In this document: positions 1 through 34,227 of the stretch, one piece after another
How the letters are laid out: each line of letters starts with the position of its first letter
How positions within the stretch are numbered: the first letter of the stretch is position 1
DNA from: a marine bacterium AO1-C
GTDB lineage: Bacteria > Bacteroidota > Bacteroidia > Cytophagales > Microscillaceae
NCBI GenBank assembly: GCA_001890965.1
Contig: MLAY01000008.1
Span: 424,341-488,340, forward strand
DNA length: 64,000 bases
Direction of reading: 5' to 3'
Notes under the pieces: model-generated
Told to the model about the DNA's origin: nothing
The model's database searches: none
The model's input: only the letters and a program-made list of their open reading frames with translations
Position numbers and translations under genes: made by a program

Positions 1-1433
1 CGATTGAGAGTGGTTTACCTACCTTGTTGATTTATATTTTTGAACCGATTGTGCAAGAAAGTGCCGATTGGGACATTCGTCATTGGCAGTTTGTGTATCA
101 GTCTATAGAAGATTTGAATTTTGAGCTGGTCGACTACCAATCAAAGCTCCATTTTTTTCACTCCGAAACCCAGTCAGTATTCGAGCATATACTTTCTCAG
201 CACAAGATTCATCAGGTTTTTTCTTATCAGGAAACTGGTATTCAAGTAACCTATGATCGCGACAAGCAAATGAAGGCTTTCTTTGCTCAAAAAGGCATTG
301 AATGGGTGGAGTTTCAGAACAATGGGGTACTACGGGGCAAACAAAATCGTAAGGGGTGGAACAGAGCCTGGAATCAATTTATGCACCAGCCACTGGATAC
401 CCCCGAGCTGGATCAACTCCAAAACGTGGCATTTGAGGTAACAGATTTTGCTTTTTTGTTTGATTATGTCACCGGCCAAAAGGTGCACTTATATCCCAAA
501 AGCTACCAACCTGCGGGTATGCGCAGTGCCCAAAAATATCTCCGAACTTTTACCCAAAAACGGGTCAGTGAATACATTCAAAACTTATCGAAACCCGAAA
601 CCAGTCGCAAAAGCTGTAGTCGCTTATCGCCTTATTTGGCCTGGGGCAACTTAAGCGTGCGCCAGGTATACCAACATTGTCAAAATCAGTTGGCCAAATC
701 TTCTAAAAATAAGCGAAATATTGAGGCATTTTTAAGTCGCTTGCATTGGCATTGTCATTTTATCCAAAAGTTTGAAATGGAAGAACGGATGGAGTTTGAA
801 TCGGTAAATGATGGTTACCAACATCTGAAGCAACCTCGCAACAATGCGCATGTAGAAGCCTGGAAGAACGGACAAACGGGTTACCCTATAATAGATGCTT
901 GTATGCGTTGCCTCAAAGAAACGGGTTATCTCAATTTTCGGATGCGAGCCATGGTGGTATCGTTTCTCACCCATAATTTATGGCAACCCTGGCAAACCGG
1001 GGCTTATTATTTGGCCCAACAATTTTTGGATTACGAACCAGGCATTCATTTTCCACAATTTCAGATGCAGGCAGGGGTTACTGGGGTAAACACCATTCGA
1101 GTGTACAATCCCGTAAAGCAATCGCGTGAGCACGATCCTGATGCGGTGTTTATCAAAAAATGGGTGCCTGAACTCAAGACCATTCCAGCGGGTATTATCC
1201 ACGATCCCCGACAGATTACTGCTATTGAACAAACCTTCTATAACTGCTACATTGGCAAAGACTACCCTACCCCGATTGTAGACATTGAGAAAACCGCCAA
1301 ACAAGCCCAAGACCAATTGTATGCTATTAAGAAAACCGAAGTGGTACAGCGTGAAAATGAGCGTATTTTGGCCAAGCATGTGGTTAAGCGTAAAAAGACT
1401 ACCAAGGAAGGGGTGCAGGAAGTTGGGGGATAG
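1..1433 (+). CDS. Cryptochrome/photolyase-family protein, 5'-partial. The reading frame is open from window position 3 upstream of the annotated start. The C-terminal FAD-binding domain carries the TGYPIIDA...MRAMVVSFL motif.
   Basis: ORF 24..1433 with no in-frame stop back to the window edge; photolyase FAD-binding signature. Confidence 0.8.
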
Positions 1434-1737
1434 TTTTAGGTGTTATTTTGCGTATTTAATCACAAGAGCAACTGCTCAGCTCGAGCTTTGTATATCTAGT
1501 CATACCTCTTCTCCTGTACTGACAGCACATTTATATAAAACACTGATTATTAACTATTTGAAATAATATTAGATGTACGTATTTTGTCACCCTGAGGTCT
1601 GCTTGAAGAGCAACTACCAGATACCTCGGCAAGCTCGGTATGACAAACGCTTGCGTCATCTATATTAATGTATTTAAATATCAGAATCTGGAATGACAAC
1701 CCTTAACTTTTGATTATTTATATCAGAACATAAAGAA

Positions 1738-1771
1738 GAAACCTGACTACAAGACTGCAATCAGGTTTTTT
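1738..1771. terminator. Bidirectional Rho-independent terminator between convergent genes
   Basis: aacctgactacaagactgcaatcaggtt stem followed by TTTTTT. Confidence 0.6.
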
Positions 1772-1791
1772 CACTATTAAACGAGCCAAAC

Positions 1792-4311: not shown

Positions 4312-4992
4312 AAAATTTATATTTGGGTAAAATCAAGAAGTTTAGTAAATGGGATGTGTATACTTATAGGATTGTATAATTGAAATATCGCCCCTATAAA
4401 GATTGTTTAAAATTACAATTGACAGGCAACCTGATCATATTCCAGTATAACAGTGAGGCTAAATATAAGTGGTTAATGATGTGTTTCATGTGGGTAGTTG
4501 TTTTAGAATTTAGATGAATTTATTTTTATGATCTTATAGTGAAGATAGGTTATCAAATTCATCGCCCCTATATCAAAAATTGGTTTTATAGATTCGAGGG
4601 GATTTTGTAGAGGAAGTATGACTTATTTTTATATCAAAAGTATTTTTATTTGATTTTGCAGGTAAAGTGAAAATATGCTTCTCAACACAATCATTTCTTG
4701 AGCACTTGTTCTCTACTAGCCCAGAACCTTGTTTGAATTTTTATTTCACAATTAACTCAAAACACCAAATTAAACCTTCCAAAAATCCTTATTTAGGTCG
4801 TCTATGTTTTGTCTATGCGCGAAAATTGTCTCTCCCACAAGTGACCTATAATTTTGCTCTTAATAAAAAATCAGTTTTAAGTAAATAAATGAGTGAATTC
4901 AACATTACGTGCTCCTTCGGTGGTAGGAAGGGGCACTAAAATGTTGTAAAACTTCTTAAATACTGAAAGCACATCAATAGCATTTTAGGTAT

Positions 4993-5748
4993 ATGAAATC
5001 ACTGATTAGATCGTCTCTGTATGTCCTTCTTTTTTTGAGTATTATGGTATTCTCTTCCTGCAATCAGGAAAGTGCTGACCCAACTCCTACCTCAAACCAA
5101 ACAATTGGTAGAATATTACCCATAGGAGCCTCGAGGGTGCAAGGCAAGCGCCCTGATCATGAAAGCTACCGATACGACTTGTGGAAAATGCTGGTAAATG
5201 CTGAGAAGAATTTTGATTTTATAGGCTCTCAAATAGATGAAAGTACTTATCTAACTTTTCAAGGAAAGGAGTTTGACAAAGAACATCAAGGTCGGGGCGG
5301 ATTTACCTCAGTGCAAATTCTTGAATTGTTGAGAAACACTATAGACCAGATAGTGGCCGAGTTGGGTGTTCCTGATGTAGTTTTATTGGGAACCCCTGGC
5401 GGAAACGATGGATTGCAAGGTTTACCCTTTGAAAACGCGGTACAAAACACCCACGCCATCATTGATTTGCTCCAGGCAACGAATCCTAATGTAACCATCA
5501 TTATAGAACAAGCGGCTCCCCCTCGCTCCACTTTGAGCAAGGAGTTGATCGCAGATAATGAGCGTATGAACGAAGAAGTCATAAACATTGCAGCAGCTCA
5601 AACCACCAGTACCTCCAAAGTGATCACAGTAGATATGTACACAGGTTTTAGCGATGCCCTTTTAGCCGATGGGGTACACTATAATGCTGCTGGTGCCAGG
5701 TTTATCGCAGAACGATATTTTGAGACACTCAATAACCTTACAGATTAA
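4993..5748 (+). CDS. SGNH/GDSL-family hydrolase lipoprotein
   Basis: Lipobox ...FSSC; DGVHYN block; 251 aa. Confidence 0.7.
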   Translation: MKSLIRSSLYVLLFLSIMVFSSCNQESADPTPTSNQTIGRILPIGASRVQGKRPDHESYRYDLWKMLVNAEKNFDFIGSQIDESTYLTFQGKEFDKEHQGRGGFTSVQILELLRNTIDQIVAELGVPDVVLLGTPGGNDGLQGLPFENAVQNTHAIIDLLQATNPNVTIIIEQAAPPRSTLSKELIADNERMNEEVINIAAAQTTSTSKVITVDMYTGFSDALLADGVHYNAAGARFIAERYFETLNNLTD

Positions 5749-5846
5749 ACTGGTTGATGTCACAAATTGACCAGAAAACAACTACTGATATTGTATCCAA
5801 CATCTAGCAAAATCTATATTTTTTATTACCCAAATTAGTATTACAC

Positions 5847-6686
5847 ATGAGAATTCTTACAAAGTTTACCCAGGTAGCTTTAGTAGCTACTCTATGTTGC
5901 ACCTTTGCCTGTACGCAAACTGAACAACGTCCTCAGGATGAGATTCCACCTGAAGTTTTAGCCAAAATAAAAACCATGGGCTTTTCTACCGAAGGAGTGC
6001 TCAAAGCAGACGATGGCTATATTGTGGAACGTGATATTTTTATCCCAGTAGAGCGTTTAGGCGAACAATATGAAAACCCCTTAGTGCTTCGAGCAGGTCA
6101 GGAAGAGCAATATCGCACTACCAATGTAGTCAATACCAATGGTGGACGAGTGGTTACGATCTACTTGGACACTCGTTTCAACAGCAATTACCAAACTGCT
6201 TTGCAAGGGGCCATTGGAGCTTACAATAACCTTAATCTGGACCTCAGTTTTCAGCAAACCAATAATGAATCTGGTGCCGATATTCGCATCACTCGTTTGA
6301 ATCGTTTTCTGGAGCTTTTTGGAGTACTAGGTTCAGCTGGATTCCCTACTGCCTCTGGCGATCCATTCAATAGGATCCAACTAAGTGGTGTAATGGAATC
6401 GTCGTTTGGCTACTCTATAGGGGCTATTGCTACTGTAATTGGCCACGAAATAGGCCATTGTATTGGTTTTCGTCATACCGATTATTTCGATCGTTCTATC
6501 AGTTGTGGTGGGGCTACCGATCCTGAACCAGCAGCACCAGAGGGCGCTATTCTTATTCCAGGTACTCCTTCAGGGGCAAATTTGGCCGATGCATCCTGGA
6601 TGCTTGCTTGCTCAGATGGCAGCACCCGTCGTTTCAATGCAGATGATATTACAGCACTTAATTGGATGTATAAAGACAACTTTTAA
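5847..6686 (+). CDS. Dual-action HEIGH zinc metallopeptidase (M57 family) lipoprotein
   Basis: VIGHEIGHCIGFRHTD motif; lipoprotein signal. Confidence 0.75.
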   Translation: MRILTKFTQVALVATLCCTFACTQTEQRPQDEIPPEVLAKIKTMGFSTEGVLKADDGYIVERDIFIPVERLGEQYENPLVLRAGQEEQYRTTNVVNTNGGRVVTIYLDTRFNSNYQTALQGAIGAYNNLNLDLSFQQTNNESGADIRITRLNRFLELFGVLGSAGFPTASGDPFNRIQLSGVMESSFGYSIGAIATVIGHEIGHCIGFRHTDYFDRSISCGGATDPEPAAPEGAILIPGTPSGANLADASWMLACSDGSTRRFNADDITALNWMYKDNF

Positions 6687-6766
6687 ATTCCTCCCAGTTG
6701 ATATACTTACTTTTAATAAGCGAACAAAAGCCTTCACAATTTTGTGGGGGCTTTTATGTTTTGCCA

Positions 6767-7621
6767 CTATACCATTTTGACAATAAATTCTGCCAGTTTT
6801 TGTTTACCCTCGATGCCTATCTTTTTCTTGATACGGTAATGATGGGTAATGACACTCGAGGCTGAAATATTAAATATGTGGGCAATCTCATTATTGGAAA
6901 GACCAATCTTTAGGTAAGCACAATGACGCATATCGGTTTGGCTCAAAGATGGACATTTTTTCAATAATAGATTGAAAAAATTGGGATGTACATTCTCAAA
7001 ATGCACCTTAAATATTTCCCATTCATTTTCCATATTCAGGCTCCCTTCAATTTCTTTTTCTATGGCCCTCATTTCGGTTTTCAAATTAGCTGGTAGCTTA
7101 TAGGCAATCTTATGCACCTTATCCTGAATATTCCCCAGCAATTGTTTCTTTTGGATAATCTCGATGGTTTTACTACTCAACTCCCGATTTTTTTGATCTT
7201 CTATAATCTGACGTTGCTCTTTGACCATACGCAATGTCCGATACATTTTGAGGGTAGATTCTACCCGCGCATATAGCTCAATGTAGTTCAAAGGTTTTGG
7301 TATAAAATCGTCTGCACCTACATTAAAAGCCTTTTTTAGGTTTTCAGGTGTGGTATTTATTCCAGTAATAATGATTACTGGCAGGTGTTTGGTCTTTGGG
7401 TTGATCTTCATCGTCTGAATAAGATCGATCCCGTTCATTACTGGCATTTCCCAATCTGTGATTACAAGTTCTGGTAGTTTTTGCTCCAGAATCTTAAGGG
7501 CAATGGCTCCATTAGCCGCCGATTGTACCCGATATCCTTTAGGGCTTCTCCCTAAATGATAGTTCAATGTTTTCAATCCCTCTTTGTCATCATCTACAAT
7601 AAGTATGGTATTTTTTTCCAT
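6767..7621 (-). CDS. Response regulator with a receiver domain and a LuxR-type HTH
   Basis: N-terminal receiver (ILIVDDD...ITDWEMP); C-terminal LuxR HTH. Confidence 0.8.
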   Translation of the reverse strand: MEKNTILIVDDDKEGLKTLNYHLGRSPKGYRVQSAANGAIALKILEQKLPELVITDWEMPVMNGIDLIQTMKINPKTKHLPVIIITGINTTPENLKKAFNVGADDFIPKPLNYIELYARVESTLKMYRTLRMVKEQRQIIEDQKNRELSSKTIEIIQKKQLLGNIQDKVHKIAYKLPANLKTEMRAIEKEIEGSLNMENEWEIFKVHFENVHPNFFNLLLKKCPSLSQTDMRHCAYLKIGLSNNEIAHIFNISASSVITHHYRIKKKIGIEGKQKLAEFIVKMV

Positions 7622-19634: not shown

Positions 19635-19676
19635 CATAAAAAAACCATTGCCTAACAACCTGTTAAACAATGGTTT
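19635..19676 (-). terminator. Minus-strand Rho-independent terminator at the distal end of the tRNA array
   Basis: aaaccattg...caatggttt stem followed by T7 on the minus strand. Confidence 0.6.
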
Positions 19677-19689
19677 ACATCGTAATCAA

Positions 19690-19839
19690 AAAAGGGGTAA
19701 CCAACGATCAGTGAATTAGTACTTTACCATTAAGCTACGAGGCCTTATGATTGGCTTGATCGTAAGGAGGCCCCGGTGGGAATCGAACCCACATCTCATC
19801 ATTAAAAGTGACGCGAAGTAACACTCATCTACGACACCC
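19690..19839 (-). ncRNA. Permuted/split tRNA-like unit a (Lys-like, anticodon TTT). Order on the minus strand: 26-nt leader, anticodon arm, T-arm, acceptor 3' strand CGGGGCC, 24-nt loop, acceptor 5' strand GGCCTCG, TA, D-arm, trailer
   Basis: Perfect 7-bp acceptor complementarity across the loop; canonical T-loop TTCGATT. Confidence 0.5.
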
Positions 19840-19842
19840 TTT

Positions 19843-19918
19843 TGGTTCGCCCGGTAGGATTCGAACCTACGGCCCTCTGATTAAGAGTCAGATGCTCTAC
19901 CAACTAAGCTACGAGCGA
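19843..19918 (-). tRNA. tRNA-Lys(CTT)
   Basis: Cloverleaf, anticodon loop CTCTTAA, CCA encoded. Confidence 0.85.
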
Positions 19919-19924
19919 ATTTCT

Positions 19925-20107
19925 ACAAGCAATATATCTGTAGAAAGGTTTATAAAAACAAGAGGTAACAAGCGGTAAGTGTACATAAAAACATTCTATC
20001 CAATTAAACTACAGGGGCATTATAATATATATTAGTGCCCCTGGCGGGATTCGAACCCGCACCTCATGATTTGGAGTCACGCGAAGTAACACTCACCTAC
20101 GACACTC
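19925..20107 (-). ncRNA. Permuted/split tRNA-like unit b (Trp-like, anticodon CCA). Acceptor 3' strand CAGGGGC, loop ACTAATATATATTATAAT, acceptor 5' strand GCCCCTG, D-arm. An 11-bp leader:trailer helix forms between GGTGAGTGTTAC and GTACACTTACC
   Basis: Sequence pairing read directly. Confidence 0.5.
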
Positions 20108-20109
20108 TT

Positions 20110-20185
20110 TGGTTCGTCCGGTGGGACTCGAACCCACAACCTTCCGGTTAAAAGCCGGGAACTCTACCAATTAAGCTACGAACGA
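20110..20185 (-). tRNA. tRNA-Lys(TTT)
   Basis: Anticodon loop CTTTTAA; CCA encoded. Confidence 0.85.
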
Positions 20186-20188
20186 ATG

Positions 20189-20263
20189 TGGCGGGAATGG
20201 CAGGAATCGAACCTGCGTCCGCTGTTTAACAGACAGCCGCTAGAACCACTCAGCTACACTCCC
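20189..20263 (-). tRNA. tRNA-Asn(GTT)
   Basis: Anticodon loop CTGTTAA; CCA encoded. Confidence 0.85.
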
Positions 20264-20300
20264 AAATTGTAGACCTGACCAATGCCAGGTCTATTATTTG

Positions 20301-20373
20301 CGCGGATGGAAGGAATCGAACCCTCACCTCTGGTGTTGGAGACCAGCATTCTAAAACATTGAACTACACCCGC
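20301..20373 (-). tRNA. tRNA-Trp(CCA)
   Basis: Anticodon loop CTCCAAC. Confidence 0.8.
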
Positions 20374-20521
20374 AGTACAAAAGAGGTTACAAGCAATAAG
20401 TGAACGTTTGCTGCTCTACCTACTGAGCTACTCTCGTGAGTAATTAAGTTTGCACGAGAGGTGGGACTCGAACCCACGACCCACCGATTAACTGTCGAAG
20501 TAACACTCATTTACGACACTC
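20374..20521 (-). ncRNA. Permuted/split tRNA-like unit c. Acceptor 3' strand CTCTCGT, loop, acceptor 5' strand ACGAGAG, D-arm GCTCAGTAGGTAGAGC. The anticodon arm is degenerate.
   Basis: Acceptor pairs across the loop; T-arm GTGGGTTCGAGTCCCAC. Confidence 0.45.
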
Positions 20522-20524
20522 TTT

Positions 20525-20600
20525 TGGTTCGCCTGATGGGACTCGAACCCACGACCCTCTGATTAAAAGTCAGATACTCTACCAACTAAGCTACAAGCGA
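20525..20600 (-). tRNA. tRNA-Lys(TTT)
   Basis: Cloverleaf; CCA encoded. Confidence 0.85.
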
Positions 20601-20605
20601 ATTTG

Positions 20606-20684
20606 CACGGATGGAAGGAATCGAACCTTCTTCATTATTTTTGGGCTTTTGGAGACCATAGCTCTACCATTGAGCTACATCCGT
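20606..20684 (-). tRNA. tRNA-Trp(CCA)-like variant; the 3' side of the anticodon stem is replaced or extended, so it is possibly a pseudogene
   Basis: Acceptor, D-arm and T-arm intact; anticodon stem unpaired. Confidence 0.5.
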
Positions 20685-20737
20685 GTATAGTTATTTTCTC
20701 AAACCTGTCAGAATTCTAAACCCGACAGGGTTAAAAG

Positions 20738-20811
20738 TTCGTCCGGTGGGACTCGAACCCACGACCTTCTGATTAAAAGTCAGATGCTCTACGCAACTAA
20801 GCTACGAACGA
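20738..20811 (-). tRNA. tRNA-Lys(TTT)
   Basis: Cloverleaf; no CCA. Confidence 0.8.
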
Positions 20812-20814
20812 ATG

Positions 20815-20889
20815 TGGCGGGAATGGCAGGAATCGAACCTGCGTCCGCTGTTTAACAGACAGCCGCTAAAACCACTCAGCTACACTCCC
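20815..20889 (-). tRNA. tRNA-Asn(GTT)
   Basis: Cloverleaf. Confidence 0.85.
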
Positions 20890-20926
20890 AAATTGTAGAC
20901 CTGACCAATATCAAGTCCATCATTCG

Positions 20927-20997
20927 CACGGATGGAAGGAATCGAACCCTCGTCGTTGGTTTTGGAGACCATAGCTCTACCATTGAGCTACATCCGT
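20927..20997 (-). tRNA. tRNA-Trp(CCA)
   Basis: Anticodon loop CTCCAAA. Confidence 0.8.
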
Positions 20998-21050
20998 GTA
21001 TAGTTATTTTATCAGACCTGTCAGAATTTTAAACCCGACAGGGTTAAAAG

Positions 21051-21124
21051 TTCGTCCGGTGGGATTCGAACCCACGACCTTCTGATTAAAAGTCAGATGC
21101 TCTACGCAACTAAGCTACGAACGA
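21051..21124 (-). tRNA. tRNA-Lys(TTT)
   Basis: Cloverleaf. Confidence 0.8.
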
Positions 21125-21127
21125 ATG

Positions 21128-21202
21128 TGGCGGGAATGGCAGGGATCGAACCTGCGTCCGCTGTTTAACAGACAGCCGCTAAAACCACTCAGCTACACTC
21201 CC
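21128..21202 (-). tRNA. tRNA-Asn(GTT)
   Basis: Cloverleaf. Confidence 0.85.
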
Positions 21203-21239
21203 AAATTGTAGACCTGACCAATGCCAGGTCTATTATTTG

Positions 21240-21312
21240 CGCGGATGGAAGGAATCGAACCCTCACCTCTGGTGTTGGAGACCAGCATTCTAAAACATTG
21301 AACTACACCCGC
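21240..21312 (-). tRNA. tRNA-Trp(CCA)
   Basis: Cloverleaf. Confidence 0.8.
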
Positions 21313-21460
21313 AGTACAAAAGAGGTTACAAGCAATAAGTGAACGTTTGCTGCTCTACCTACTGAGCTACTCTCGTGAGTAATTAAGTTTGCACGAGAGG
21401 TGGGACTCGAACCCACGACCCACCGATTAACTGTCGAAGTAACACTCATTTACGACACTC
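21313..21460 (-). ncRNA. Permuted/split tRNA-like unit c' (duplicate of unit c)
   Basis: Near-identical to 20374..20521. Confidence 0.45.
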
Positions 21461-21463
21461 TTT

Positions 21464-21539
21464 TGGTTCGCCTGGTGGGACTCGAACCCACGACCCTCTG
21501 ATTAAAAGTCAGATACTCTACCAACTAAGCTACAAGCGA
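21464..21539 (-). tRNA. tRNA-Lys(TTT)
   Basis: Cloverleaf. Confidence 0.85.
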
Positions 21540-21544
21540 ATTTG

Positions 21545-21624
21545 CACGGATGGAAGGAATCGAACCTTCTTCACTATTTTTTTGGGTTTTGGAGACCATA
21601 GCTCTACCATTGAGCTACATCCGT
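21545..21624 (-). tRNA. tRNA-Trp(CCA)-like variant (duplicate of 20606..20684)
   Basis: Anticodon stem disrupted. Confidence 0.5.
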
Positions 21625-21637
21625 GTGTAATTATTTG

Positions 21638-21709
21638 CGGGAATGGTAGGGTTCGAACCTACGTGTGTCCGCTTAACAGGCGGGTGCTAAACCACTCAGC
21701 TACACTCCC
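21638..21709 (-). tRNA. tRNA-Asn(GTT) variant with a divergent anticodon stem and T-arm
   Basis: Anticodon loop CTGTTAA. Confidence 0.7.
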
Positions 21710-21753
21710 AAGTTTTATTATTTTTTATTTGGTTCACTTATTTGTGGATGGCA

Positions 21754-21787
21754 TAAAAAAACCTCTTTGCGAATAACAAAGAGGTTT
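21754..21787 (-). terminator. Minus-strand terminator separating the upstream tRNA set from the duplicated Lys-Asn-Trp blocks
   Basis: aacctctttg...caaagaggtt stem followed by T7 on the minus strand. Confidence 0.6.
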
Positions 21788-21963
21788 AGCAGTATTCATA
21801 GAATATAAGAATAATACAACAAACTTCTTTATCACTCCAGGCAGTTACCCCACCACTTTTTATAATTCTTGTATTTATTATTATTCCAGTTCATTGCTAT
21901 AAATATTTTATATTAAAGTTAAAACTTACATTGTACTTTTTAAAAGATATAATAACCCTGTAG

Positions 21964-22036
21964 TTGCGTCAGAAGGAGTCGAACCCTCACCTTCTGGGTC
22001 GAAACCAGAAATTCTAATCCATTAAACTATGACGCA
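21964..22036 (-). tRNA. tRNA-Arg(TCG)
   Basis: Anticodon loop TTTCGAC. Confidence 0.8.
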
Positions 22037-22050
22037 ATATGTAATTCCAG

Positions 22051-22123
22051 TTGCGCTGGAAGGAGTCGAACCCTCATCCTCCGGGTAGAAACCGGACATT
22101 CTAATCCATTGAACTACAGCGCA
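22051..22123 (-). tRNA. tRNA-Arg(TCT)
   Basis: Anticodon loop TTTCTAC. Confidence 0.8.
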
Positions 22124-22137
22124 ATATGTAACTCTAG

Positions 22138-22210
22138 TTGCGCTGGAAGGAATCGAACCTTCATCTCATGCTTCGTAGACAAGTGTTCTAATCCGTTGAA
22201 CTACAGCGCA
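22138..22210 (-). tRNA. tRNA-Arg(ACG)
   Basis: Anticodon loop CTACGAA. Confidence 0.75.
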
Positions 22211-22215
22211 AGGTG

Positions 22216-22289
22216 GCACTCCGTTGGGAATCGAACCCAATTGCCCTGTTTCACAGACAGGGGCGTCAACCATTTTCGCCTCAGAGTGC
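22216..22289 (-). tRNA. tRNA-His(GTG) with G-1
   Basis: Anticodon loop CTGTGAA; an extra 5' G pairs with C73. Confidence 0.8.
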
Positions 22290-22298
22290 ATATATATG

Positions 22299-22372
22299 TC
22301 GGATAGGCAGGATTCGAACCTACGTGCTCTGGCATCCCGGGCCAGCGAAGACGACCACTCTTCCACTATCCG
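22299..22372 (-). tRNA. tRNA-Pro(GGG) with an unusual C33
   Basis: Acceptor CGGATAG; anticodon loop CCGGGAT. Confidence 0.65.
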
Positions 22373-22401
22373 ATATTCAAAGTATGTTGTTCATACTTTT
22401 G

Positions 22402-22475
22402 TCGGATAGGCAGGGTTCGAACCTGCGTTCTCTGGAGTCCAAGACCAGCGAGGATGACCACTCCTCCACTATCCG
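22402..22475 (-). tRNA. tRNA-Pro(TGG)
   Basis: Anticodon loop CTTGGAC. Confidence 0.8.
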
Positions 22476-22505
22476 ATTATAAATCTCTAATTATCAGTGT
22501 TTTAG

Positions 22506-22579
22506 TCGGATAGGCAAGATTCGAACTTGCGTACTCTAGTACCCAAAACTAGCGAGATAAACCACTCCTCTACTATCCG
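22506..22579 (-). tRNA. tRNA-Pro(TGG)-like (G37; 3-bp D-stem)
   Basis: Anticodon loop TTTGGGT. Confidence 0.6.
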
Positions 22580-22585
22580 ATGATT

Positions 22586-22662
22586 TGGTGTACCCTGAAG
22601 GATTTGAACCTTCAATCCCCTGGGTATGAGCCAGGTGCTTTCACCATTTAAGCTAAGGGTAC
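22586..22662 (-). tRNA. tRNA-Met(CAT), elongator type (possibly Ile2)
   Basis: Anticodon loop CTCATAC; G1-C72; CCA encoded. Confidence 0.8.
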
Positions 22663-22680
22663 TGCTGTGACCATTGGCTA

Positions 22681-22718
22681 CAAAAAAAGCCTTACTTCAA
22701 TTGAGGCAAGGCTTTTTG
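22681..22718. terminator. Bidirectional Rho-independent terminator
   Basis: aaagcctt...aaggcttt stem flanked by an A-run and a T-run. Confidence 0.6.
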
Positions 22719-22888
22719 GAGATGGGTAATCTCTACGGTTTACTGCAGTCATAGCAGTAGCCTTGCCGTTTTGGGTTTCTTTATCCGTATCGGATGCCAA
22801 CGGTGTTTTCTATTAATGGTGTTATATCTTGTCGGGACAATCATTGTTATCTTGTTTTCTATATTATTTTGCTTCAAATTTCTTTTAG

Positions 22889-22961
22889 AGCACCCACAAG
22901 GAATCGAACCTTGATCCACTGATTACAAGTCAGTTATTCTAAGCCGTTGAACTACAGGTGC
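22889..22961 (-). tRNA. tRNA-Thr(TGT)
   Basis: Anticodon loop CTTGTAA. Confidence 0.8.
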
Positions 22962-22985
22962 TTATATTATTCATCATTTGCTTGG

Positions 22986-23058
22986 AGCACCTACAAGGAA
23001 TCGAACCTTGATCCATTGATTACTAAACAATAATTTTAAACCGTTAAACTATAGGTGC
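22986..23058 (-). tRNA. tRNA-Thr-like with an atypical anticodon loop (TTAGTAA gives AGT, or a 9-nt loop); possibly a pseudogene
   Basis: Paralog of 22889..22961. Confidence 0.5.
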
Positions 23059-23066
23059 TATTACTC

Positions 23067-23143
23067 TGGTATGCTCTGGGGGACTCGAACCCCCGATTAC
23101 TTGTGTATCAGACAAGTGCCTTGACCAACTTGGCTAAGAGCAT
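23067..23143 (-). tRNA. tRNA-Ile(GAT)
   Basis: Anticodon loop CTGATAC; CCA encoded. Confidence 0.85.
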
Positions 23144-24258: not shown

Positions 24259-25863
24259 CTATTTTGATCCTCTTCTGGTTTGCTGGAAATTTCTAAGCTG
24301 TTGCTGAATCTTAGCAATATCTCGTTTGAATTTAGATTTACGAATCTGTTCATAGATTTTGCGGAATCCCGAGGAACCCAATTGACGCAAACTCTCCACA
24401 ATCGTACTTTTAACAGGGTGAGGATACTCATCGTACTTACGAATGGTTTTAAAAGCCGGGAAATTGGCATTTTGCTCCAGTTCTTTTTCCAAATAAGTAT
24501 CGGTAAGCCCTAATTGCTGACGAATGGACTTAAACTGAGGTGCTACAAACATATAGTCGGTGTGGGTAAACCAAGAATTGAGTTCGTGTCGATAAAAATC
24601 ACCCTGAAGGTGAGAACTACCAGCTAAATCTACCACGTCATTATCAGCAATATTATGCGTTACTTGAGGGCGATTTTTTTGTCGAGCAAATTGCGCAGCT
24701 GAATCTCTGTCAATTCCAGGAGCTTGAAAGGTAACTACCCGATTGGCCACTCCAGGAAAATAAGCTGCAGCATACTGGGCTAAAGCACCACCTAAGCTAT
24801 GTCCGGTAAAATCAGCTTTTCCTCCAGCATCCTTGATTATTTGCAAAATCAAATTGGCATTCTTGTATAATTGATCAAAGCCTACACCCACAGGGTTCAA
24901 ATCAGTGGTAATATCTTCTATATGAGTGGGTTGTGTTCCTCGAAAGGCAATCACTGGATTTTTGGATAATCCTCGTAATGGTTGAATACGCACTGCATCG
25001 AAGTCTTGCTTGCCGTGATATACACGAGCGGTACGCAGATCATACCCCATTCTCCGTAAAATCTTATTAGCCTGTTGCCACGGCTTGCTGGGGCTGTTTG
25101 TTTGGCCTTGATTGATAAAATCTTCGTCTTTATAAGCCAGAAAGTGCGCCAGGTATTCAAAGGATACATTTTCTACCCCCAACTCTTCAGCATAGCTATG
25201 TACATCTTGCTGAAATTCGTAAAAAATAGGTGCTTGTCCTTTTTTACTGGCCTTACATACAATTTTGTGGGTGCCAGGAAAACCTGCCTTAAAGCTTCCC
25301 GTAGCCGAAGAAGTGCCTTTGGCCATCGTAGAGCTTTTTTTATCATAAGCCCCTGTGGTATTGAAGTCATTGACTGCATACCATTGGTAGCTATCATATT
25401 TTTGCCCCAGTTGGTACGAAACTCTATCACCTGGATATACTGCTTTGCCTGTATGGCTACTCTTAATGCCACTTCTTTTTACTGTAAAGTTGGTGGCTGA
25501 TTCTTTGGGAAGGTAAGCCCCAAAACCCGCAGATTTTAGCTGATAAGCAGCAAACTGCCAGTCTTCATCACTCCAAAAGCTCTTCATTTCGTCCCGCAAT
25601 CGTGGGATGAACTTTTCTTTGTAGGTAGCTTCATACTGAGCAATGACCATTTTTAACTGCTGATGTGGCAAGTTTAATACCCGATGAACGGTTTGTTCGT
25701 CGGTGCCCAGTCCTGAAAAAGCTTCGTGAATTTGTCCTACCAGATCTCCAGTTGATTCTTCGGTAGAGTTGGGTATAAATCGATTGGTGAGTTGTTGGCT
25801 GGTAGACTGTTGGTCTTGCACCATTGTCTCCTCCGACTTCAAAAGTTGCGTTTTCCCAGGCAT
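24259..25863 (-). CDS. Class-3 lipase-family alpha/beta hydrolase with an N-terminal annexin-like GLGTDE motif; no signal peptide
   Basis: FTGHSLGGALAQYAAAY nucleophile elbow. Confidence 0.65.
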   Translation of the reverse strand: MPGKTQLLKSEETMVQDQQSTSQQLTNRFIPNSTEESTGDLVGQIHEAFSGLGTDEQTVHRVLNLPHQQLKMVIAQYEATYKEKFIPRLRDEMKSFWSDEDWQFAAYQLKSAGFGAYLPKESATNFTVKRSGIKSSHTGKAVYPGDRVSYQLGQKYDSYQWYAVNDFNTTGAYDKKSSTMAKGTSSATGSFKAGFPGTHKIVCKASKKGQAPIFYEFQQDVHSYAEELGVENVSFEYLAHFLAYKDEDFINQGQTNSPSKPWQQANKILRRMGYDLRTARVYHGKQDFDAVRIQPLRGLSKNPVIAFRGTQPTHIEDITTDLNPVGVGFDQLYKNANLILQIIKDAGGKADFTGHSLGGALAQYAAAYFPGVANRVVTFQAPGIDRDSAAQFARQKNRPQVTHNIADNDVVDLAGSSHLQGDFYRHELNSWFTHTDYMFVAPQFKSIRQQLGLTDTYLEKELEQNANFPAFKTIRKYDEYPHPVKSTIVESLRQLGSSGFRKIYEQIRKSKFKRDIAKIQQQLRNFQQTRRGSK

Positions 25864-30012: not shown

Positions 30013-30297
30013 AATTGAAAAACTACTGATAGATTGTCTAATATACCCCTGTTTAAATGGTATAATTAAATGAAGTGACTACACATTTTGGTGACAAATG
30101 GGAAACTTATAAATAACGGTAAACTTCCTGGCATAATTACTTGTTTCTTTACCACTTGGTACGTTGCTAAAAGTCAAGATAACTTCTTATATTTGCGGTT
30201 TGCTAATATCAAGTTGGCAAATTACTTATTTGAATATTTTTTGAACAAAAAGTCGTTAAAAAGTATTCATACAACACAGGTAAATACGACACACAAC

Positions 30298-33108
30298 ATG
30301 CAGGTAGATATAGATCAGTTAGACCCACGACATCACATCATTATTAAAGGCGCTCGGGTAAATAATTTGAAAGGACTGGATGTAGCCATTCCTCGCAATC
30401 AACTGGTAGTAATTACTGGTTTGTCTGGTTCGGGTAAGTCTTCTCTGGCCTTCGATACCCTTTTTGCCGAAGGGCAACGCATGTATGTAGAAAGCCTGAG
30501 TTCTTATGCCCGACAGTTTTTGGGGCGTATGGAAAAACCAGCCGTAGAATACATCAAAGGTGTATCGCCTGCCATTGCCGTAGAGCAAAAAAGTAACACT
30601 AAAAACCCACGAGCTACAGTAGGTACCTCCACTGAAATTTATGACTATTTAAAGCTATTATTTGCCCGCATTGGGGTTACTTATTCTCCCAAATCTGGCG
30701 AAATGGTGAAGAAAGATAGTGTAACTGATGTAGTCAACTTTATCCAATCACACGATGAAGGGCAAAAGCTCCTCATTATGGCTCCAGTGCAAATGAATGA
30801 TGATCGTACACTGGAAGAAGAATTGAAACTTATCTTTCAAAAAGGCTTTACTCGTTTGTTGGTAGATGAGGAAACACTCTTTATTGAAGAACTCCTTCCT
30901 GATGTAGCGGCTATTAAAGCCCTTGTGGGGCAGGAAATCTATATTTTGGTGGATCGAAATGTAGTAAAAAAAGACGATGAAGATAACCAGTTTCGTATTG
31001 CCGACTCAGTACAAACTGCTTTCTATGAAGGCCATGGTACTTGTGTAATCAATATTCTCAAAAAAGAAGTAAGACAGTTTTCAGATCGCTTTGAACTTGA
31101 TGGAATTCGCTTTGAAGAACCCAGCGTCCAGTTTTTTAGCTTCAACAACCCTTATGGCGCTTGTAAACGATGCGGTGGTTTTGGTACCGTATTAGACATA
31201 GACGAAGATTTAGTCATTCCCAATAAAAACCTTTCGGTGTATGACAACGCCATTGTGCCTTGGTCTACCGAAAAAATGCGTCAAGAGTGGTTTCAACCGT
31301 TGATTAACAGTAGTTATAAGTTTGACTTTCCGATTCATCGCCCTTACCGCGAATTGAGCGAAGAAGATAAACGCTTACTTTGGGAAGGTAATGATCACTT
31401 TTTAGGGCTTAATGCATTTTTTGAACACATTGCCAGCCAAAGTCATAAAATTCAATATCGGGTAATGTTGTCTCGTTATCGCGGGAAAGTTACCTGTCCT
31501 GATTGTAGAGGTACTCGTTTGCGCAAAGATGCAGGATATGTAAAAATTGCAGGGTATAACATTTCTGACTTAGTACTTCTATCTCTGGAAGATTTGCGAA
31601 ATCTTTTTCAAAACCTGGAGCTTACCCCCAATGAACAAACCATTGCCCGTAGGGTGTTGGTAGAGATCAATAACCGTATCAAATACCTGAATGAAGTAGG
31701 ACTTGGTTATCTTACCCTGAATCGTTTAACCTCTACCCTATCGGGTGGCGAATACCAGCGGATTAAGTTGGCTACGGCTTTAGGAAGTGCACTGGTAGGC
31801 TCTATGTATATTTTAGATGAACCTAGTATTGGGCTACATCCTCGCGATACTCACCGATTGATTGGGGTACTCAAAGATTTAAAGGCACTGGGCAACACCG
31901 TAATTGTGGTAGAGCATGAAGAAGATATCATGCGAGAAGCCGACCAAATCATTGATATTGGTCCTAATGCAGGTACTGGAGGAGGCGAATTGGTTTTTCA
32001 GGGCACATTGGAAGCACATATTAAAAATGGGCAAAGTTCACATACCTTAAATTACCTGAATGGTACCGATGTCATTGCTATTCCCAAAATACGCCGCCCA
32101 GCGAGTAGCTTCCTTACCTTGACGGGTGCCGAAGAACACAACCTGAAAAACATAGACGTTCGTTTTCCTTTGGGAGTAATGACGGTAGTAACTGGAGTAA
32201 GTGGCTCAGGTAAATCTACGCTGATCAAAGATATTTTGTATCCAGTACTGGCTAAAATCTATGGAGATTATAACAGTGCCAAAGGTAAATACCAAAGCCT
32301 GGAGGGCGATATCAATGCATTGGTAGGAGTAGAATTTATAGATCAAAACCCAATTGGTAAATCATCTCGTTCTAACCCAGTGACTTATACCAAATCGTAT
32401 GATGCCATCCGTAACTTATTTTCTAGCACACCTCTAGCTAAAAAACGAGGTTATAAGCCTGCTCACTTCTCGTTCAATGTGGACAAAGGTCGCTGTGAAG
32501 TATGCGAAGGAGAAGGAAAAGTAAAGATCGAAATGCAGTTTATGGCAGATGTATACCTTACCTGCGAAAGCTGTAATGGAAAGCGATTTAAGAAAGAAAT
32601 ACTGGAAGTAAAATACAATGATAAGGACATTGCTGAAGTACTGGATTTAACGATTGACGAAAGTCTTGAGTTTTTTAAAGAGCAACCTAAAATTATTCAG
32701 GCCTTGACTCCTCTGCAAGAAGTGGGTCTGGGATATGTAGGGTTAGGACAGTCGTCTAATACTTTGAGTGGTGGAGAAGCTCAACGGTTAAAACTGGCTT
32801 CCTTTCTTGATAAACGCAATTCTCGCAAAGGCAGTACTTTGTTTATTTTTGATGAGCCTACTACTGGGCTACACTTTCACGATATCAAAAAATTACTCAA
32901 AGCTTTGAATGCTTTGGTAGAGCAAGGTCATTCAGTAATAGTGATTGAGCATAACCTTGAGGTTGTCAAAAGTGCAGATTGGATCATTGACCTGGGGCCT
33001 GATGGTGGAGACAAAGGTGGGCAAATTTGTTTTGAAGGGATTCCAGAAGATTTGATTAAGCTGGAGGATAATCACACTGCGCGGTTTTTGAAGGAGAAGT
33101 TTAAGTAA
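30298..33108 (+). CDS. uvrA: Excinuclease ABC subunit A
   Basis: Two ABC ATPase modules with zinc fingers; 937 aa from MQVDIDQLDP. Confidence 0.9.
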   Translation: MQVDIDQLDPRHHIIIKGARVNNLKGLDVAIPRNQLVVITGLSGSGKSSLAFDTLFAEGQRMYVESLSSYARQFLGRMEKPAVEYIKGVSPAIAVEQKSNTKNPRATVGTSTEIYDYLKLLFARIGVTYSPKSGEMVKKDSVTDVVNFIQSHDEGQKLLIMAPVQMNDDRTLEEELKLIFQKGFTRLLVDEETLFIEELLPDVAAIKALVGQEIYILVDRNVVKKDDEDNQFRIADSVQTAFYEGHGTCVINILKKEVRQFSDRFELDGIRFEEPSVQFFSFNNPYGACKRCGGFGTVLDIDEDLVIPNKNLSVYDNAIVPWSTEKMRQEWFQPLINSSYKFDFPIHRPYRELSEEDKRLLWEGNDHFLGLNAFFEHIASQSHKIQYRVMLSRYRGKVTCPDCRGTRLRKDAGYVKIAGYNISDLVLLSLEDLRNLFQNLELTPNEQTIARRVLVEINNRIKYLNEVGLGYLTLNRLTSTLSGGEYQRIKLATALGSALVGSMYILDEPSIGLHPRDTHRLIGVLKDLKALGNTVIVVEHEEDIMREADQIIDIGPNAGTGGGELVFQGTLEAHIKNGQSSHTLNYLNGTDVIAIPKIRRPASSFLTLTGAEEHNLKNIDVRFPLGVMTVVTGVSGSGKSTLIKDILYPVLAKIYGDYNSAKGKYQSLEGDINALVGVEFIDQNPIGKSSRSNPVTYTKSYDAIRNLFSSTPLAKKRGYKPAHFSFNVDKGRCEVCEGEGKVKIEMQFMADVYLTCESCNGKRFKKEILEVKYNDKDIAEVLDLTIDESLEFFKEQPKIIQALTPLQEVGLGYVGLGQSSNTLSGGEAQRLKLASFLDKRNSRKGSTLFIFDEPTTGLHFHDIKKLLKALNALVEQGHSVIVIEHNLEVVKSADWIIDLGPDGGDKGGQICFEGIPEDLIKLEDNHTARFLKEKFK

Positions 33109-33167: not shown

Positions 33168-34227
33168 AAATAATTAACGCGAATTATTGCTTTTAATATT
33201 TTAAAAGTACAACATTTGCCTGGTCTAGGTCTTTCATATCAAAATCAGCAATCTTTGGGAGGTGATCCAAGAAGTTATAAGCAATGATTCCCGCCCAAAG
33301 ATTGACCATACAATTGATCGGAGAGCGATGTCTGGTATGCTCAATTTGACATTGGTTTACCATTTGTCCAAAGACCGTTTCAATTAATGTTCTTTTCTTT
33401 AAATAGTATCGTTCTTTCTGGGTCAAAACAGGCTTTTTCATGTTCTTACGAATTTTAGTAATCAGTTTACAACCTTGTTCTTGAAGCGCTTTTTTGAGTT
33501 TAGAAATGTAACCTTTATCTCCATAAACAGTGCCTTCAAAGCCTTTGAGCATACTTTTTAACAGTTCTGCATTATTATCAGCTACATTACCCGAAGTCAC
33601 TCGGATTTTCAATATTTCACCTTGTTGATTGCAAAGTAAGTGTAACTTTAGGCCGTAGAAAAATCCCTTGCTGGTTACACCTTTCTGGGCAATATGTAGA
33701 AAGACCTGATGGAGTTTCTCTCGTTTGATATGGCAAACTTCGAGCGGCTTACTATCAATGTAGTTCGCTTCAGTAGGCTTACCGATACAGAAGTGGTGAA
33801 GAAATGCATAGAGTTCTAATTGAATGTGTTTCATTTGGGCTACAAAGCGTTCATATGTATAAGTGTCTGGGAAGTAACTACTTAGATGTTCTTTTACAAT
33901 CTGTTTATAATACCACGAAAAGCAACGAATACCTGATAGATGAAAGAAAATAACGATGGTCATCATTTCTGATTTACTCATTTTCCCACGCCAAGCCTTG
34001 GTGCCAATTAACTTTTGCTCTAAGAAAGGGGTAAATTCTTTCATGAAATCATCGGTTAGTACGAAGATTTCGGCTAATTTTGATGTATTCAGGATAATCA
34101 TTGTCTAAGGTGTTTTATTAGAATTCTGCAAAATCAAATTAAAACACTTAAAGTAGATTATCCTGTTTTTTGTGATAAATAATTTATAATCAAGAAATTA
34201 ACCCGTTAACTCGCGTTAATTAAGCCG
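33168..34227 (-). mobile_element. IS982-family insertion sequence with imperfect terminal inverted repeats
   Basis: Inverted repeats TAATTAACGCGAATTA (33171-33187) and TAACTCGCGTTAATTA (34208-34224). Confidence 0.7.
33193..34101 (-). CDS. IS982-family DDE transposase
   Basis: 302 aa; YGDKGYIS motif. Confidence 0.8.
   Translation of the reverse strand: MIILNTSKLAEIFVLTDDFMKEFTPFLEQKLIGTKAWRGKMSKSEMMTIVIFFHLSGIRCFSWYYKQIVKEHLSSYFPDTYTYERFVAQMKHIQLELYAFLHHFCIGKPTEANYIDSKPLEVCHIKREKLHQVFLHIAQKGVTSKGFFYGLKLHLLCNQQGEILKIRVTSGNVADNNAELLKSMLKGFEGTVYGDKGYISKLKKALQEQGCKLITKIRKNMKKPVLTQKERYYLKKRTLIETVFGQMVNQCQIEHTRHRSPINCMVNLWAGIIAYNFLDHLPKIADFDMKDLDQANVVLLKY

Follow-up and report, generated by a model that had tools for sequence, protein, structure and literature searches.

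The tRNA array of the marine bacterium AO1-C (Bacteroidota, Microscillaceae) contains units in which the elements of a tRNA follow one another in permuted order between a conserved leader and a complementary trailer, which raises the question of whether the paired ends mark a processing site of permuted tRNA precursors or belong to another kind of RNA. The DNA analysed here, called the window below, is a stretch of 64,000 nucleotides (nt) of contig MLAY01000008.1 (positions 424,341 to 488,340), part of a Bacteroidota chromosome with a GC content of ca. 39%. The initial annotation of the window had described three such units, each headed by a leader of exactly 26 nt, the length of tRNA positions 1-26, and had placed a processing helix resembling a bulge-helix-bulge (BHB) at the junction of positions 26 and 27. 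Our results indicate that the units are most likely four Y RNA genes of the YrlA class residing in a tRNA operon, with the leader-trailer helix as their Rsr-binding stem. In Salmonella Typhimurium and Mycobacterium smegmatis, Rsr/Ro60 has YrlA (Y RNA-like A; Rfam RF02553) as a bound RNA (Chen et al. 2014, PMC4201824; Wang et al. 2018, 10.1101/312249).

The leader block G(G/A)GTGTCGTA(G/A)(A/G)TGAGTGTTACTTCG was found in exactly four copies in the window, all on the minus strand, while shuffled sequences gave 0.00 matches. A 22-nt trailer consensus, CACTNANNGNTNGTNACCNCTT, was also found in four copies, one downstream of every leader (0.11 in shuffles). The conserved leader with its complementary trailer is thus real, and the pairings proposed earlier were confirmed for unit b (11 base pairs (bp) with one bulge, GGUGAGUGU(U)AC/GUACACUUACC) and for units a and c (7-8 bp around GAGUG/CACU). 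The extent of the locus had been underestimated: a fourth unit, d, lies outside the range originally given (19762-20521), which also omits 19691-19735, where unit a has its D arm and trailer. The units, and the leaders and trailers located by pattern count, are as follows.

19691..19842, minus strand: unit a, complete Y-RNA-like gene and final gene of the array, behind tRNA-Lys(CUU) 19843-19918
19960..20110, minus strand: unit b, complete Y-RNA-like gene behind tRNA-Lys(UUU) 20110-20185
20380..20524, minus strand: unit c, complete Y-RNA-like gene flanked by tRNA-Lys(UUU) 20525-20600 and tRNA-Trp 20300-20373
21319..21463, minus strand: unit d, exact copy of unit c, behind tRNA-Lys(UUU) 21464-21539
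19814-19837, 20082-20105, 20496-20519 and 21435-21458, minus strand: copies of the leader block
19692-19713, 19960-19981, 20381-20402 and 21320-21341, minus strand: copies of the trailer

A scan for the leader in one genome per species yielded 16 genuine loci, which came from Mucilaginibacter, Pedobacter, Desertivirga, metagenome-assembled genomes (MAGs) of Bacteroidota and one Microscillaceae MAG (L015), the last carrying near-identical units. At 14 of the 16 loci, the unit lies 200-500 nt downstream of a same-strand open reading frame (ORF) of 539 aa with TROVE and Ro60-vWA domains, an Rsr/Ro60 orthologue. Metagenome and viral scans with a pattern that leaves the lower stem free raised the total to 73 loci. 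A same-strand TROVE/Ro60 gene ends 212-575 nt upstream of the unit at 33 of these, tRNAs are the only flanks at 23, tRNA flanks are combined with rsr just downstream at three, and neither tRNAs nor rsr flank the unit at 14, several of which are short or truncated contigs. A same-strand rsr within about 4 kb, as is typical of YrlA, is present at the 33 loci with upstream and the three loci with downstream rsr, and none was found in the window with Rsr queries or a Pfam search of its 30 longer ORFs. One Bacteroidota MAG (L003, 2100-2960, minus strand) carries at least seven tandem Y-RNA-like genes behind rsr, whose leaders all read GGUG(U/C)CGUARA-N5-7-YUACUUCG and each of which has its own complementary trailer; some of these units are without a full tRNA-like domain and resemble YrlB. 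The leader and trailer are hence also found in rsr-adjacent RNAs, many of them without an anticodon arm, and the rsr-adjacent homologue ends in a U run of its own with no tRNA flanks. Since the helix is common to rsr-adjacent RNAs that lack an anticodon arm, it is most likely the Ro60/Rsr-binding stem of a Y RNA.

The pairing extends further than first described. An additional lower stem, AAAG(R)G-U-GU/AC-C(Y)CUUU, starts 3-4 nt upstream of the supposed 26-nt block and pairs the leader side with the final trailer bases, bringing the total to ca. 18 pairs. The full stem consists of 5 bp (AAGRG/CYCUU), a bulged U, GU/AC, an internal loop with CGUA, and 8 bp (RRUGAGUG/CACUNAYY), and the first A of AAAGRG is able to pair with one more U of the trailing U run. 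It is interrupted by one 1-nt bulge (U7) on the 5' strand and by the asymmetric internal loop, so that its longest unbroken run is 8 bp. An invariant linker of 8 nt, UUACUUCG, leads from the helix to the V hairpin on the 5' side, and a linker of 7-11 nt leads to the D arm on the 3' side. The most conserved parts are the unpaired GUCGUA and UUACUUCG. The register implied by the Rfam alignment (GUGUUA/UAACCU) was dropped, as covariation favours the longer stem that starts from AAAG. The strands of the stem lie at the following positions.

19822..19842, minus strand: unit a, stem 5' strand (AAAGGGUGUCGUAGAUGAGUG), which includes GUCGUA
19691..19713, minus strand: unit a, stem 3' strand (CACUGAUCGUUGGUUACCCCUUU), beyond the range originally noted
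20090..20110, minus strand: unit b, stem 5' strand
19960..19981, minus strand: unit b, stem 3' strand
20504..20524, minus strand: unit c, stem 5' strand
20380..20402, minus strand: unit c, stem 3' strand

An alignment of 20 units, drawn from the window, L015 and 15 genome loci, served to evaluate covariation. Across it, the 18 pairs of the stem were 93.5-97.5% paired, with double compensatory changes at five of them, and sliding the partners by 1-3 columns lowered the paired fraction to only 38-66%. RNAalifold, run unguided, predicted the same outer helices together with the T arm and the D arm. Since these loci had been found via a leader-derived pattern, which fixes most positions of the 5' strand, a wider set was examined, made up of 159 distinct units with nothing but the generalised leader G(U/C)CGUAR...YUACWUC in common. 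This set contains 44 different upper-helix heptamers, and a perfect (7/7) complement was found downstream in 77% of the units, always directly ahead of the conserved (U)UGC...RCCYUU trailer; when the heptamers were swapped among the 159 units, the value was 18%. The lower stem occurs in at least 10 different sequences (e.g. AAAAGG, AAAGAG, AAGUAG, GAUCAG, AAACUG and GGGCG) with complementarity kept. A shuffle test of duplex energy was uninformative (30 of the 159 units beat 95% of shuffles) because the A-rich lower stem pairs with any U-rich stretch, and the swapped-heptamer control was used in its place. Enforcing the stem cost 2-5 kcal/mol relative to the free minimum free energy (MFE) structure, and the MFE structure of unit b already contains it. 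The leader-trailer helix is conserved, and the complementarity on which the initial annotation had staked its case is kept in the homologues with compensatory changes.

Membership in the YrlA class was assessed with a covariance model (R1) trained on 18 rsr-adjacent RNAs only. R1 matched the window units at full length, with 97.9 bits for c and d, 85.2 for b and 69.5 for a (E values of 1e-15 to 9e-23), and elsewhere in the window it reached tRNA junctions at 14-24 bits and nothing above 24. The matches of the Rfam YrlA model in the window fall on precisely the four units. The model spans unit c at model positions 1-114, and when aligned to c/d and b it gives the T arm, the acceptor hairpin, the D arm and the 3' CUUGU-ACC the places that they have in the YrlA consensus. 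YrlA is described as having a 5' motif, GNCGAAN0-1G, as its presumed Ro60 contact, a conserved YUAY at the start of the V loop, and its elements in the order V, T, acceptor stem-loop, D (PMC4201824). In the leader, GUCGUA would be the counterpart of the Ro60 motif, UGAGUG the strand of the upper helix and UUAC, which is invariant across the units, the counterpart of YUAY. The string GUCGUA(R)(R)UG agrees with the GNCGAA core at five of six positions and has a longer spacing to the following G. GUCGUA is invariant in the window units and appears as G(U/C)CGUA in the tandem copies of L003; the 159-unit set was selected with a GUCGUA-type pattern and is not independent for this motif. Thus, the units resemble YrlA in their paired 5' and 3' ends with a candidate Ro60-contact motif on the 5' strand, in YUAY ahead of the V stem-loop followed by the T arm, closed acceptor stem-loop and D arm, in the tRNA tertiary-contact bases with a covarying 15:48 pair, and in the occurrence of several Y RNA genes per locus, with homologues that adjoin rsr on the same strand. 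They share a 7-bp acceptor stem with the YrlA of M. smegmatis.

Several points weigh against this assignment. The Rfam YrlA scores, 42.6 bits for c and d and 29.7 for b over the full model and 27.6 for a over part of it, are below the gathering score of 69 bits, and GUCGUA is one position off the published GNCGAA. Unlike the YrlA genes of S. Typhimurium and M. smegmatis, the window copies are located in a tRNA operon, each abutting tRNA-Lys, and no TROVE domain or rsr was found within the 64 kb with three divergent Rsr queries and a Pfam search of the 30 longer ORFs (ca. 130 aa or more). Single-sequence folding gave modest z-scores (-2.1, -2.1 and -0.9). The R1 test is partly circular, the training RNAs and the window units sharing the leader that was used for finding them. 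Since the homologue patterns came from the leader, the invariance of leader positions 6-13 and 16-25 was imposed by the search, as was that of positions 17-28 (GAGUGUUACUUC) and of the T loop. As for the Rfam scores, the rsr-adjacent units of L003 themselves reach only 35-41 bits, and the sub-threshold score is therefore a property of this whole Bacteroidota branch; at the gathering threshold, no YrlA was detected in the 16 homologous loci. The original YrlA survey left out overlaps with tandem tRNAs and kept to candidates no more than 4 kb away from rsr (PMC4201824); because of these two filters, copies embedded in tRNA arrays fell outside it.

The part of each unit enclosed by the stem is a circular permutation of the tRNA cloverleaf, with T arm, closed acceptor and D arm, as the initial annotation had recognised, and YrlA RNAs have this same design of a permuted tRNA with paired ends. 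Its elements were located as follows.

19721..19813, minus strand: unit a, tRNA-like module
19797-19813, minus strand: unit a, V/anticodon-like hairpin (loop CUUUUAA)
19776-19792, 19738-19775 and 19721-19735, minus strand: unit a, T arm, 7-bp closed acceptor stem and D arm
19993..20081, minus strand: unit b, tRNA-like module
20065-20081, minus strand: unit b, V hairpin (loop CUCCAAA)
20044-20060, 20012-20043 and 19993-20009, minus strand: unit b, T arm, 7-bp acceptor stem and D arm
20413..20495, minus strand: unit c, tRNA-like module with a short V hairpin (loop CAGUUAA)
20461-20477, 20431-20460 and 20413-20428, minus strand: unit c, T arm, acceptor stem and D arm

The body thus runs V hairpin, T arm, closed acceptor, D arm. 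The bases that form tertiary contacts in tRNA are present (U8, A14, G18G19 and UUCGA), and the Levitt pair 15:48 covaries: units a and b have A15:U48, whereas unit c and those of Mucilaginibacter have G15:C48. The acceptor stems of a, b and c have exactly 7 bp, followed by U8-A9, and are closed by a hairpin loop of 16-24 nt; in most Sphingobacteriaceae relatives these stems are 6 bp or much longer. In a and b, the V element has the 5-bp stem and 7-nt loop of a full anticodon arm, and S. Typhimurium YrlA differs from these two units in having no anticodon loop (10.1101/312249), so that a and b amount to a complete permuted cloverleaf. When the halves were joined in silico at 26/27, ARAGORN accepted the products as Lys(UUU), Trp(CCA) and Asn(GUU), the joined product of unit c having A33 and a 4-bp anticodon stem. 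The V loops of a, b and c resemble the anticodon loops of Lys, Trp and Asn tRNAs, respectively. The 'anticodon' loop drifts, reading CAGUUAA in unit c of the window and CUUUUAA in its L015 counterpart.

The V-to-T segment of unit c is identical at 32 of 36 positions to positions 29-65 of the tRNA-Lys(UUU) of the array, the adjacent upstream copy included, and the best match of the corresponding segments of a and b is likewise tRNA-Lys. Judging from these matches, the V hairpin appears to descend from the anticodon arm of tRNA-Lys. The earlier statement that the leader cannot form an acceptor or D stem holds as far as function is concerned, but ARAGORN and the Rfam tRNA model nevertheless force-fit the leader of unit a as positions 1-26. 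The ARAGORN call, tRNA-Lys(ttt) at 19766-19838, is a chimera of the unit a leader, V hairpin, T arm and acceptor 3' strand. Rfam tRNA matches above threshold at 19766-19838 and 20043-20100 on the minus strand (47.6 and 35.3 bits) are also chimeric, the leader being taken as acceptor plus D arm, and annotation pipelines would mislabel the units at both places as tRNAs. Since both programs read the unit a leader as positions 1-26, the 26-nt leader may be a vestige of descent and not a processing landmark. YrlA has been proposed to have arisen from dimeric tRNA transcripts (10.1101/312249), an origin that such a vestigial leader would fit, if it is one.

The surrounding array comprises 27 ARAGORN gene calls on the minus strand (19766-23143). 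A terminator-like hairpin at 21759-21787 divides it in two, and its downstream half, which ends in a second hairpin at 19642-19676, contains only Lys, Asn and Trp tRNA genes and the Y-RNA-like units. The stretch 19642-21720 (minus strand) between these terminator-like hairpins is built of Lys, Asn and Trp tRNA genes in repeated Trp-Asn-Lys modules, and for each of Lys(UUU), Lys(CUU), Trp(CCA) and Asn(GUU), ARAGORN called several copies of a canonical gene in the same array. Each of the units a-d begins at or right behind the CCA of a tRNA-Lys gene, and the gaps between units and flanking tRNAs are 0-10 nt. Two further calls of 80-81 nt, at 20605-20684 and 21544-21624 on the minus strand, were typed by ARAGORN as Leu-caa and Trp-cca and scored 50 and 54 bits with the Rfam tRNA model; both are tRNA-Trp-like with an A-rich insertion of ca. 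9 nt behind the anticodon loop and may be degenerate or variant copies. Some spacers between tRNAs carry conserved hairpins, e.g. UAGACCUG...CAGGUCUA and CCUGUC...GACAGG, which may be processing or structural elements of the array.

19642-19676, minus strand: terminator-like hairpin with a 16-bp stem and a U run, which closes the operon right after unit a
20264-20299, 20685-20736, 20890-20925, 20998-21049 and 21203-21238, minus strand: hairpin-bearing spacers

A scan for sigma-70 promoters found 14 against 9.9 expected, which is not over background, with a model ill-suited to Bacteroidota promoters. Proteins encoded in the window include TonB-dependent receptors and an amylase with a T9SS sorting tail (Pfam). 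Nearby genes at 24-1433, 30088-33108 and 33193-34101 encode a photolyase, a UvrA paralogue and an IS transposase (DDE_Tnp_1_3). Directly adjoining the tRNA array is an ORF of 534 aa (24259-25863) in which Ntox3 toxin and lipase-like domains were recognised.

Based on these observations, we propose that the units work as described below. Each unit would be transcribed within the minus-strand tRNA operon, as the 0-10-nt spacers and the terminator-like hairpin at 19642-19676 suggest, and would be freed by the tRNA-maturing enzymes that act on its neighbours. The two ends of the unit, AAAGRG-U-GUCGUARR-UGAGUG at the 5' side and CACUNAYY-GYU-KGUWACCYCUUU at the 3' side, are predicted computationally to pair into an interrupted stem of ca. 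18 bp, with the conserved GUCGUA positioned in the asymmetric internal loop. This stem would serve as the docking site of Rsr, given the homology with rsr-adjacent RNAs and published work on Ro60 and Y RNAs. The UUAC linker, V hairpin, T arm, closed 7-bp acceptor and D arm would then form a tRNA-shaped effector or protective module, to which the conserved tertiary-contact bases and the covarying 15:48 pair point. Nicking by RNase P and addition of CCA are plausible given the 7-bp acceptor stems.

A comparable arrangement is seen in Deinococcus radiodurans, in which Yrn2, tRNA-Asp and Yrn1 form one polycistronic precursor (PMC4201824). Yrn1 and Yrn2 share with the units an end-to-end Ro60-binding stem with both strands recognisable, and Yrn1 can be drawn with an anticodon-like arm. 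They differ from the units in the order of the T and D elements, in the 6-nt loop of Yrn1 and in being rsr-adjacent, and their sequences are unrelated to the units. Phages that encode Ro60 and YrlA (mycobacteriophages, PMC4201824; here L021 and L060) also keep a Y RNA among many tRNA genes with a same-strand rsr. L021, an IMG/VR viral contig, has an array of 19 tRNAs at 1-5500, and the phage-like contig L060 has a large tRNA array with a suppressor tRNA-tta at 4076-7440, the TROVE domain downstream of it being confirmed by Pfam; in both, a related Y RNA lies among the tRNA genes and a divergent rsr at the array end. In contrast, the window holds ordinary Bacteroidota chromosomal genes and no phage genes, and its flanking tRNAs represent an amplification of Lys, Asn and Trp instead of the broad tRNA set of phages. 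A BLAST search of unit c against 50,697 phage genomes returned partial tRNA-like matches only (26-48% of the query), the leader being unmatched. A second abundant subfamily, with the leader AGUAGUA...GAGUGUUACUUCG, occurs in freshwater and viral contigs, always between tRNA-Gly and tRNA-Ala, and rsr was not found in the DNA of its loci.

L019, L020, L022, L024, L025, L028, L030, L042, L050, L054, L062-L064, L071 and L072: loci of the second subfamily

The Y RNA reading can be extended to a nicked two-piece RNA, a fallback already named in the initial annotation, with which it is compatible: RNase P would cut the acceptor loop, the 5' piece would be trimmed and receive CCA, and the halves would be held together by the stem and the tRNA core, yielding a product that might be aminoacylated or recognised by tRNA-binding factors. 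[quoted passage not shown] The acceptor stem has exactly 7 bp in every window unit, with U8-A9 after it, and a C stands behind the discriminator base in three window units and both L015 units. On the other hand, neither the discriminator bases (U, A, G) nor the loop sequences show conservation, C74 in five of five units is weak evidence, and the YrlA of S. Typhimurium is uncleaved (PMC4201824). We therefore regard the extension as a tentative possibility.

That the units are permuted tRNA precursors, as the initial annotation had supposed, appears very improbable. Here the helix would be cut, positions 26 and 27 would be ligated, for example by an RtcB-type ligase, and RNase P and RNase Z would open the acceptor loop to give tRNA-Lys, tRNA-Trp and tRNA-Asn. 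The in silico join at 26/27 does produce complete cloverleaves with 7-bp acceptors and, in a and b, canonical 7-nt anticodon loops. However, a BHB motif has two 3-nt bulges on opposite strands, 4 bp apart, and the helix, with its 1-nt bulge and asymmetric internal loop, contains none. Nor does it sit at the 26/27 junction, from which it is separated on both sides by linkers (8 nt on the 5' and 7-11 nt on the 3' side). It is moreover conserved in sequence and not in structure alone, and it is common to rsr-adjacent RNAs without an anticodon arm. A33 and the 4-bp stem of unit c, together with the change from GUU to UUU in the L015 counterpart, show that the 'anticodon' drifts. Since the array already holds many canonical tRNA genes with these anticodons, Lys(UUU), Trp(CCA) and Asn(GUU), there is no decoding gap that calls for splicing. 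Rsr and Y RNA genes often adjoin rtcB in other bacteria (Wang et al. 2018), but bacteria are without a known splicing endonuclease (10.1101/312249). Neither rtcB nor any other gene for a splicing endonuclease or ligase appeared in the Pfam results for the 30 longer ORFs of the window (ca. 130 aa and above). The circularly permuted tRNA genes of Cyanidioschyzon merolae, other algae and one archaeon (Soma et al. 2007 and others, cited after 10.1101/312249) serve as comparators. They resemble the units in having the 3' half upstream of the 5' half, a loop-closed acceptor and paired transcript ends, and are themselves marked by a BHB cut by the splicing endonuclease and by being the sole source of the tRNA. 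The units, in contrast, have no BHB, no known endonuclease, redundant canonical tRNAs and a conserved stem common to rsr-linked RNAs.

The units might also be non-functional debris of rearrangement of the tRNA array, i.e. fused or decaying tandem tRNAs that mimic a Y RNA. In favour of this are the strong repetitiveness of the array, in which some tRNA-Trp copies are degenerate, and the match of the unit c V-to-T segment to the adjacent tRNA-Lys at 32 of 36 positions. YrlA models are moreover known to pick up dimeric tRNAs as false positives, for which reason Chen et al. dropped overlaps with tandem tRNAs (PMC4201824). Such an origin is nonetheless scarcely probable: the leader and trailer are kept across this Microscillaceae-like genome, Sphingobacteriaceae and phage-like contigs, with covarying stems, the acceptor hairpin is closed by a 16-24-nt loop and does not join two full tRNAs, and true tRNA-tRNA junctions score 14-24 bits on R1 against 70-98 bits for the units. 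Finally, a stalk processed by an RNase III-type enzyme, which like the leader-trailer stems of rRNA would only excise the tRNA-like RNA from the polycistron, can practically be dismissed, since, although a long stem does form from sequences around a structured RNA in a polycistronic operon, its longest unbroken run is 8 bp with a bulge and an internal loop interrupting it, its best-conserved parts are the unpaired GUCGUA and UUACUUCG, and the rsr-adjacent version has no tRNA neighbours and a terminal U run of its own. The BHB motif, the RNase III stalk and a tandem-tRNA-junction artefact were thus each weighed and rejected.

The Y RNA reading leaves the window units with several unusual traits, namely the tRNA-operon setting, the lack of rsr within 64 kb, the 7-bp acceptors and a complete anticodon arm of apparent tRNA-Lys descent. 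A bolder possibility, which we consider rather unlikely, is that a complete tRNA in circularly permuted form makes up the effector domain of these Y RNAs, with a genuine anticodon arm in which descent from the neighbouring tRNA-Lys can still be seen, and that their genes have been co-amplified in one operon with those of Lys, Asn and Trp tRNAs. If so, the units would be living intermediates in the origin of YrlA from dimeric tRNA transcripts, and in the 26-nt leader a remnant of tRNA positions 1-26 would have been put to new use as a Ro60 site. Once nicked and supplied with CCA, the units might mimic two-piece tRNAs and could serve anticodon nucleases as decoys, act as sensors for these enzymes, or tether Rsr to damaged Lys, Asn or Trp tRNAs.

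Taken together, the exotic notion of permuted-tRNA splicing in bacteria gives way to the better supported Y RNA reading. A whole Bacteroidota and phage branch of YrlA-like RNAs sits under the Rfam threshold, and standard tools mis-call its array-embedded members as tRNA-Lys or partial tRNAs. Of the Y RNAs found here, those of the window resemble a tRNA most closely, with a 7-bp acceptor and an intact anticodon arm akin to that of the adjacent tRNA-Lys, and they provide sequence material for the dimeric-tRNA origin model and for the tRNA-like processing of Y RNAs.

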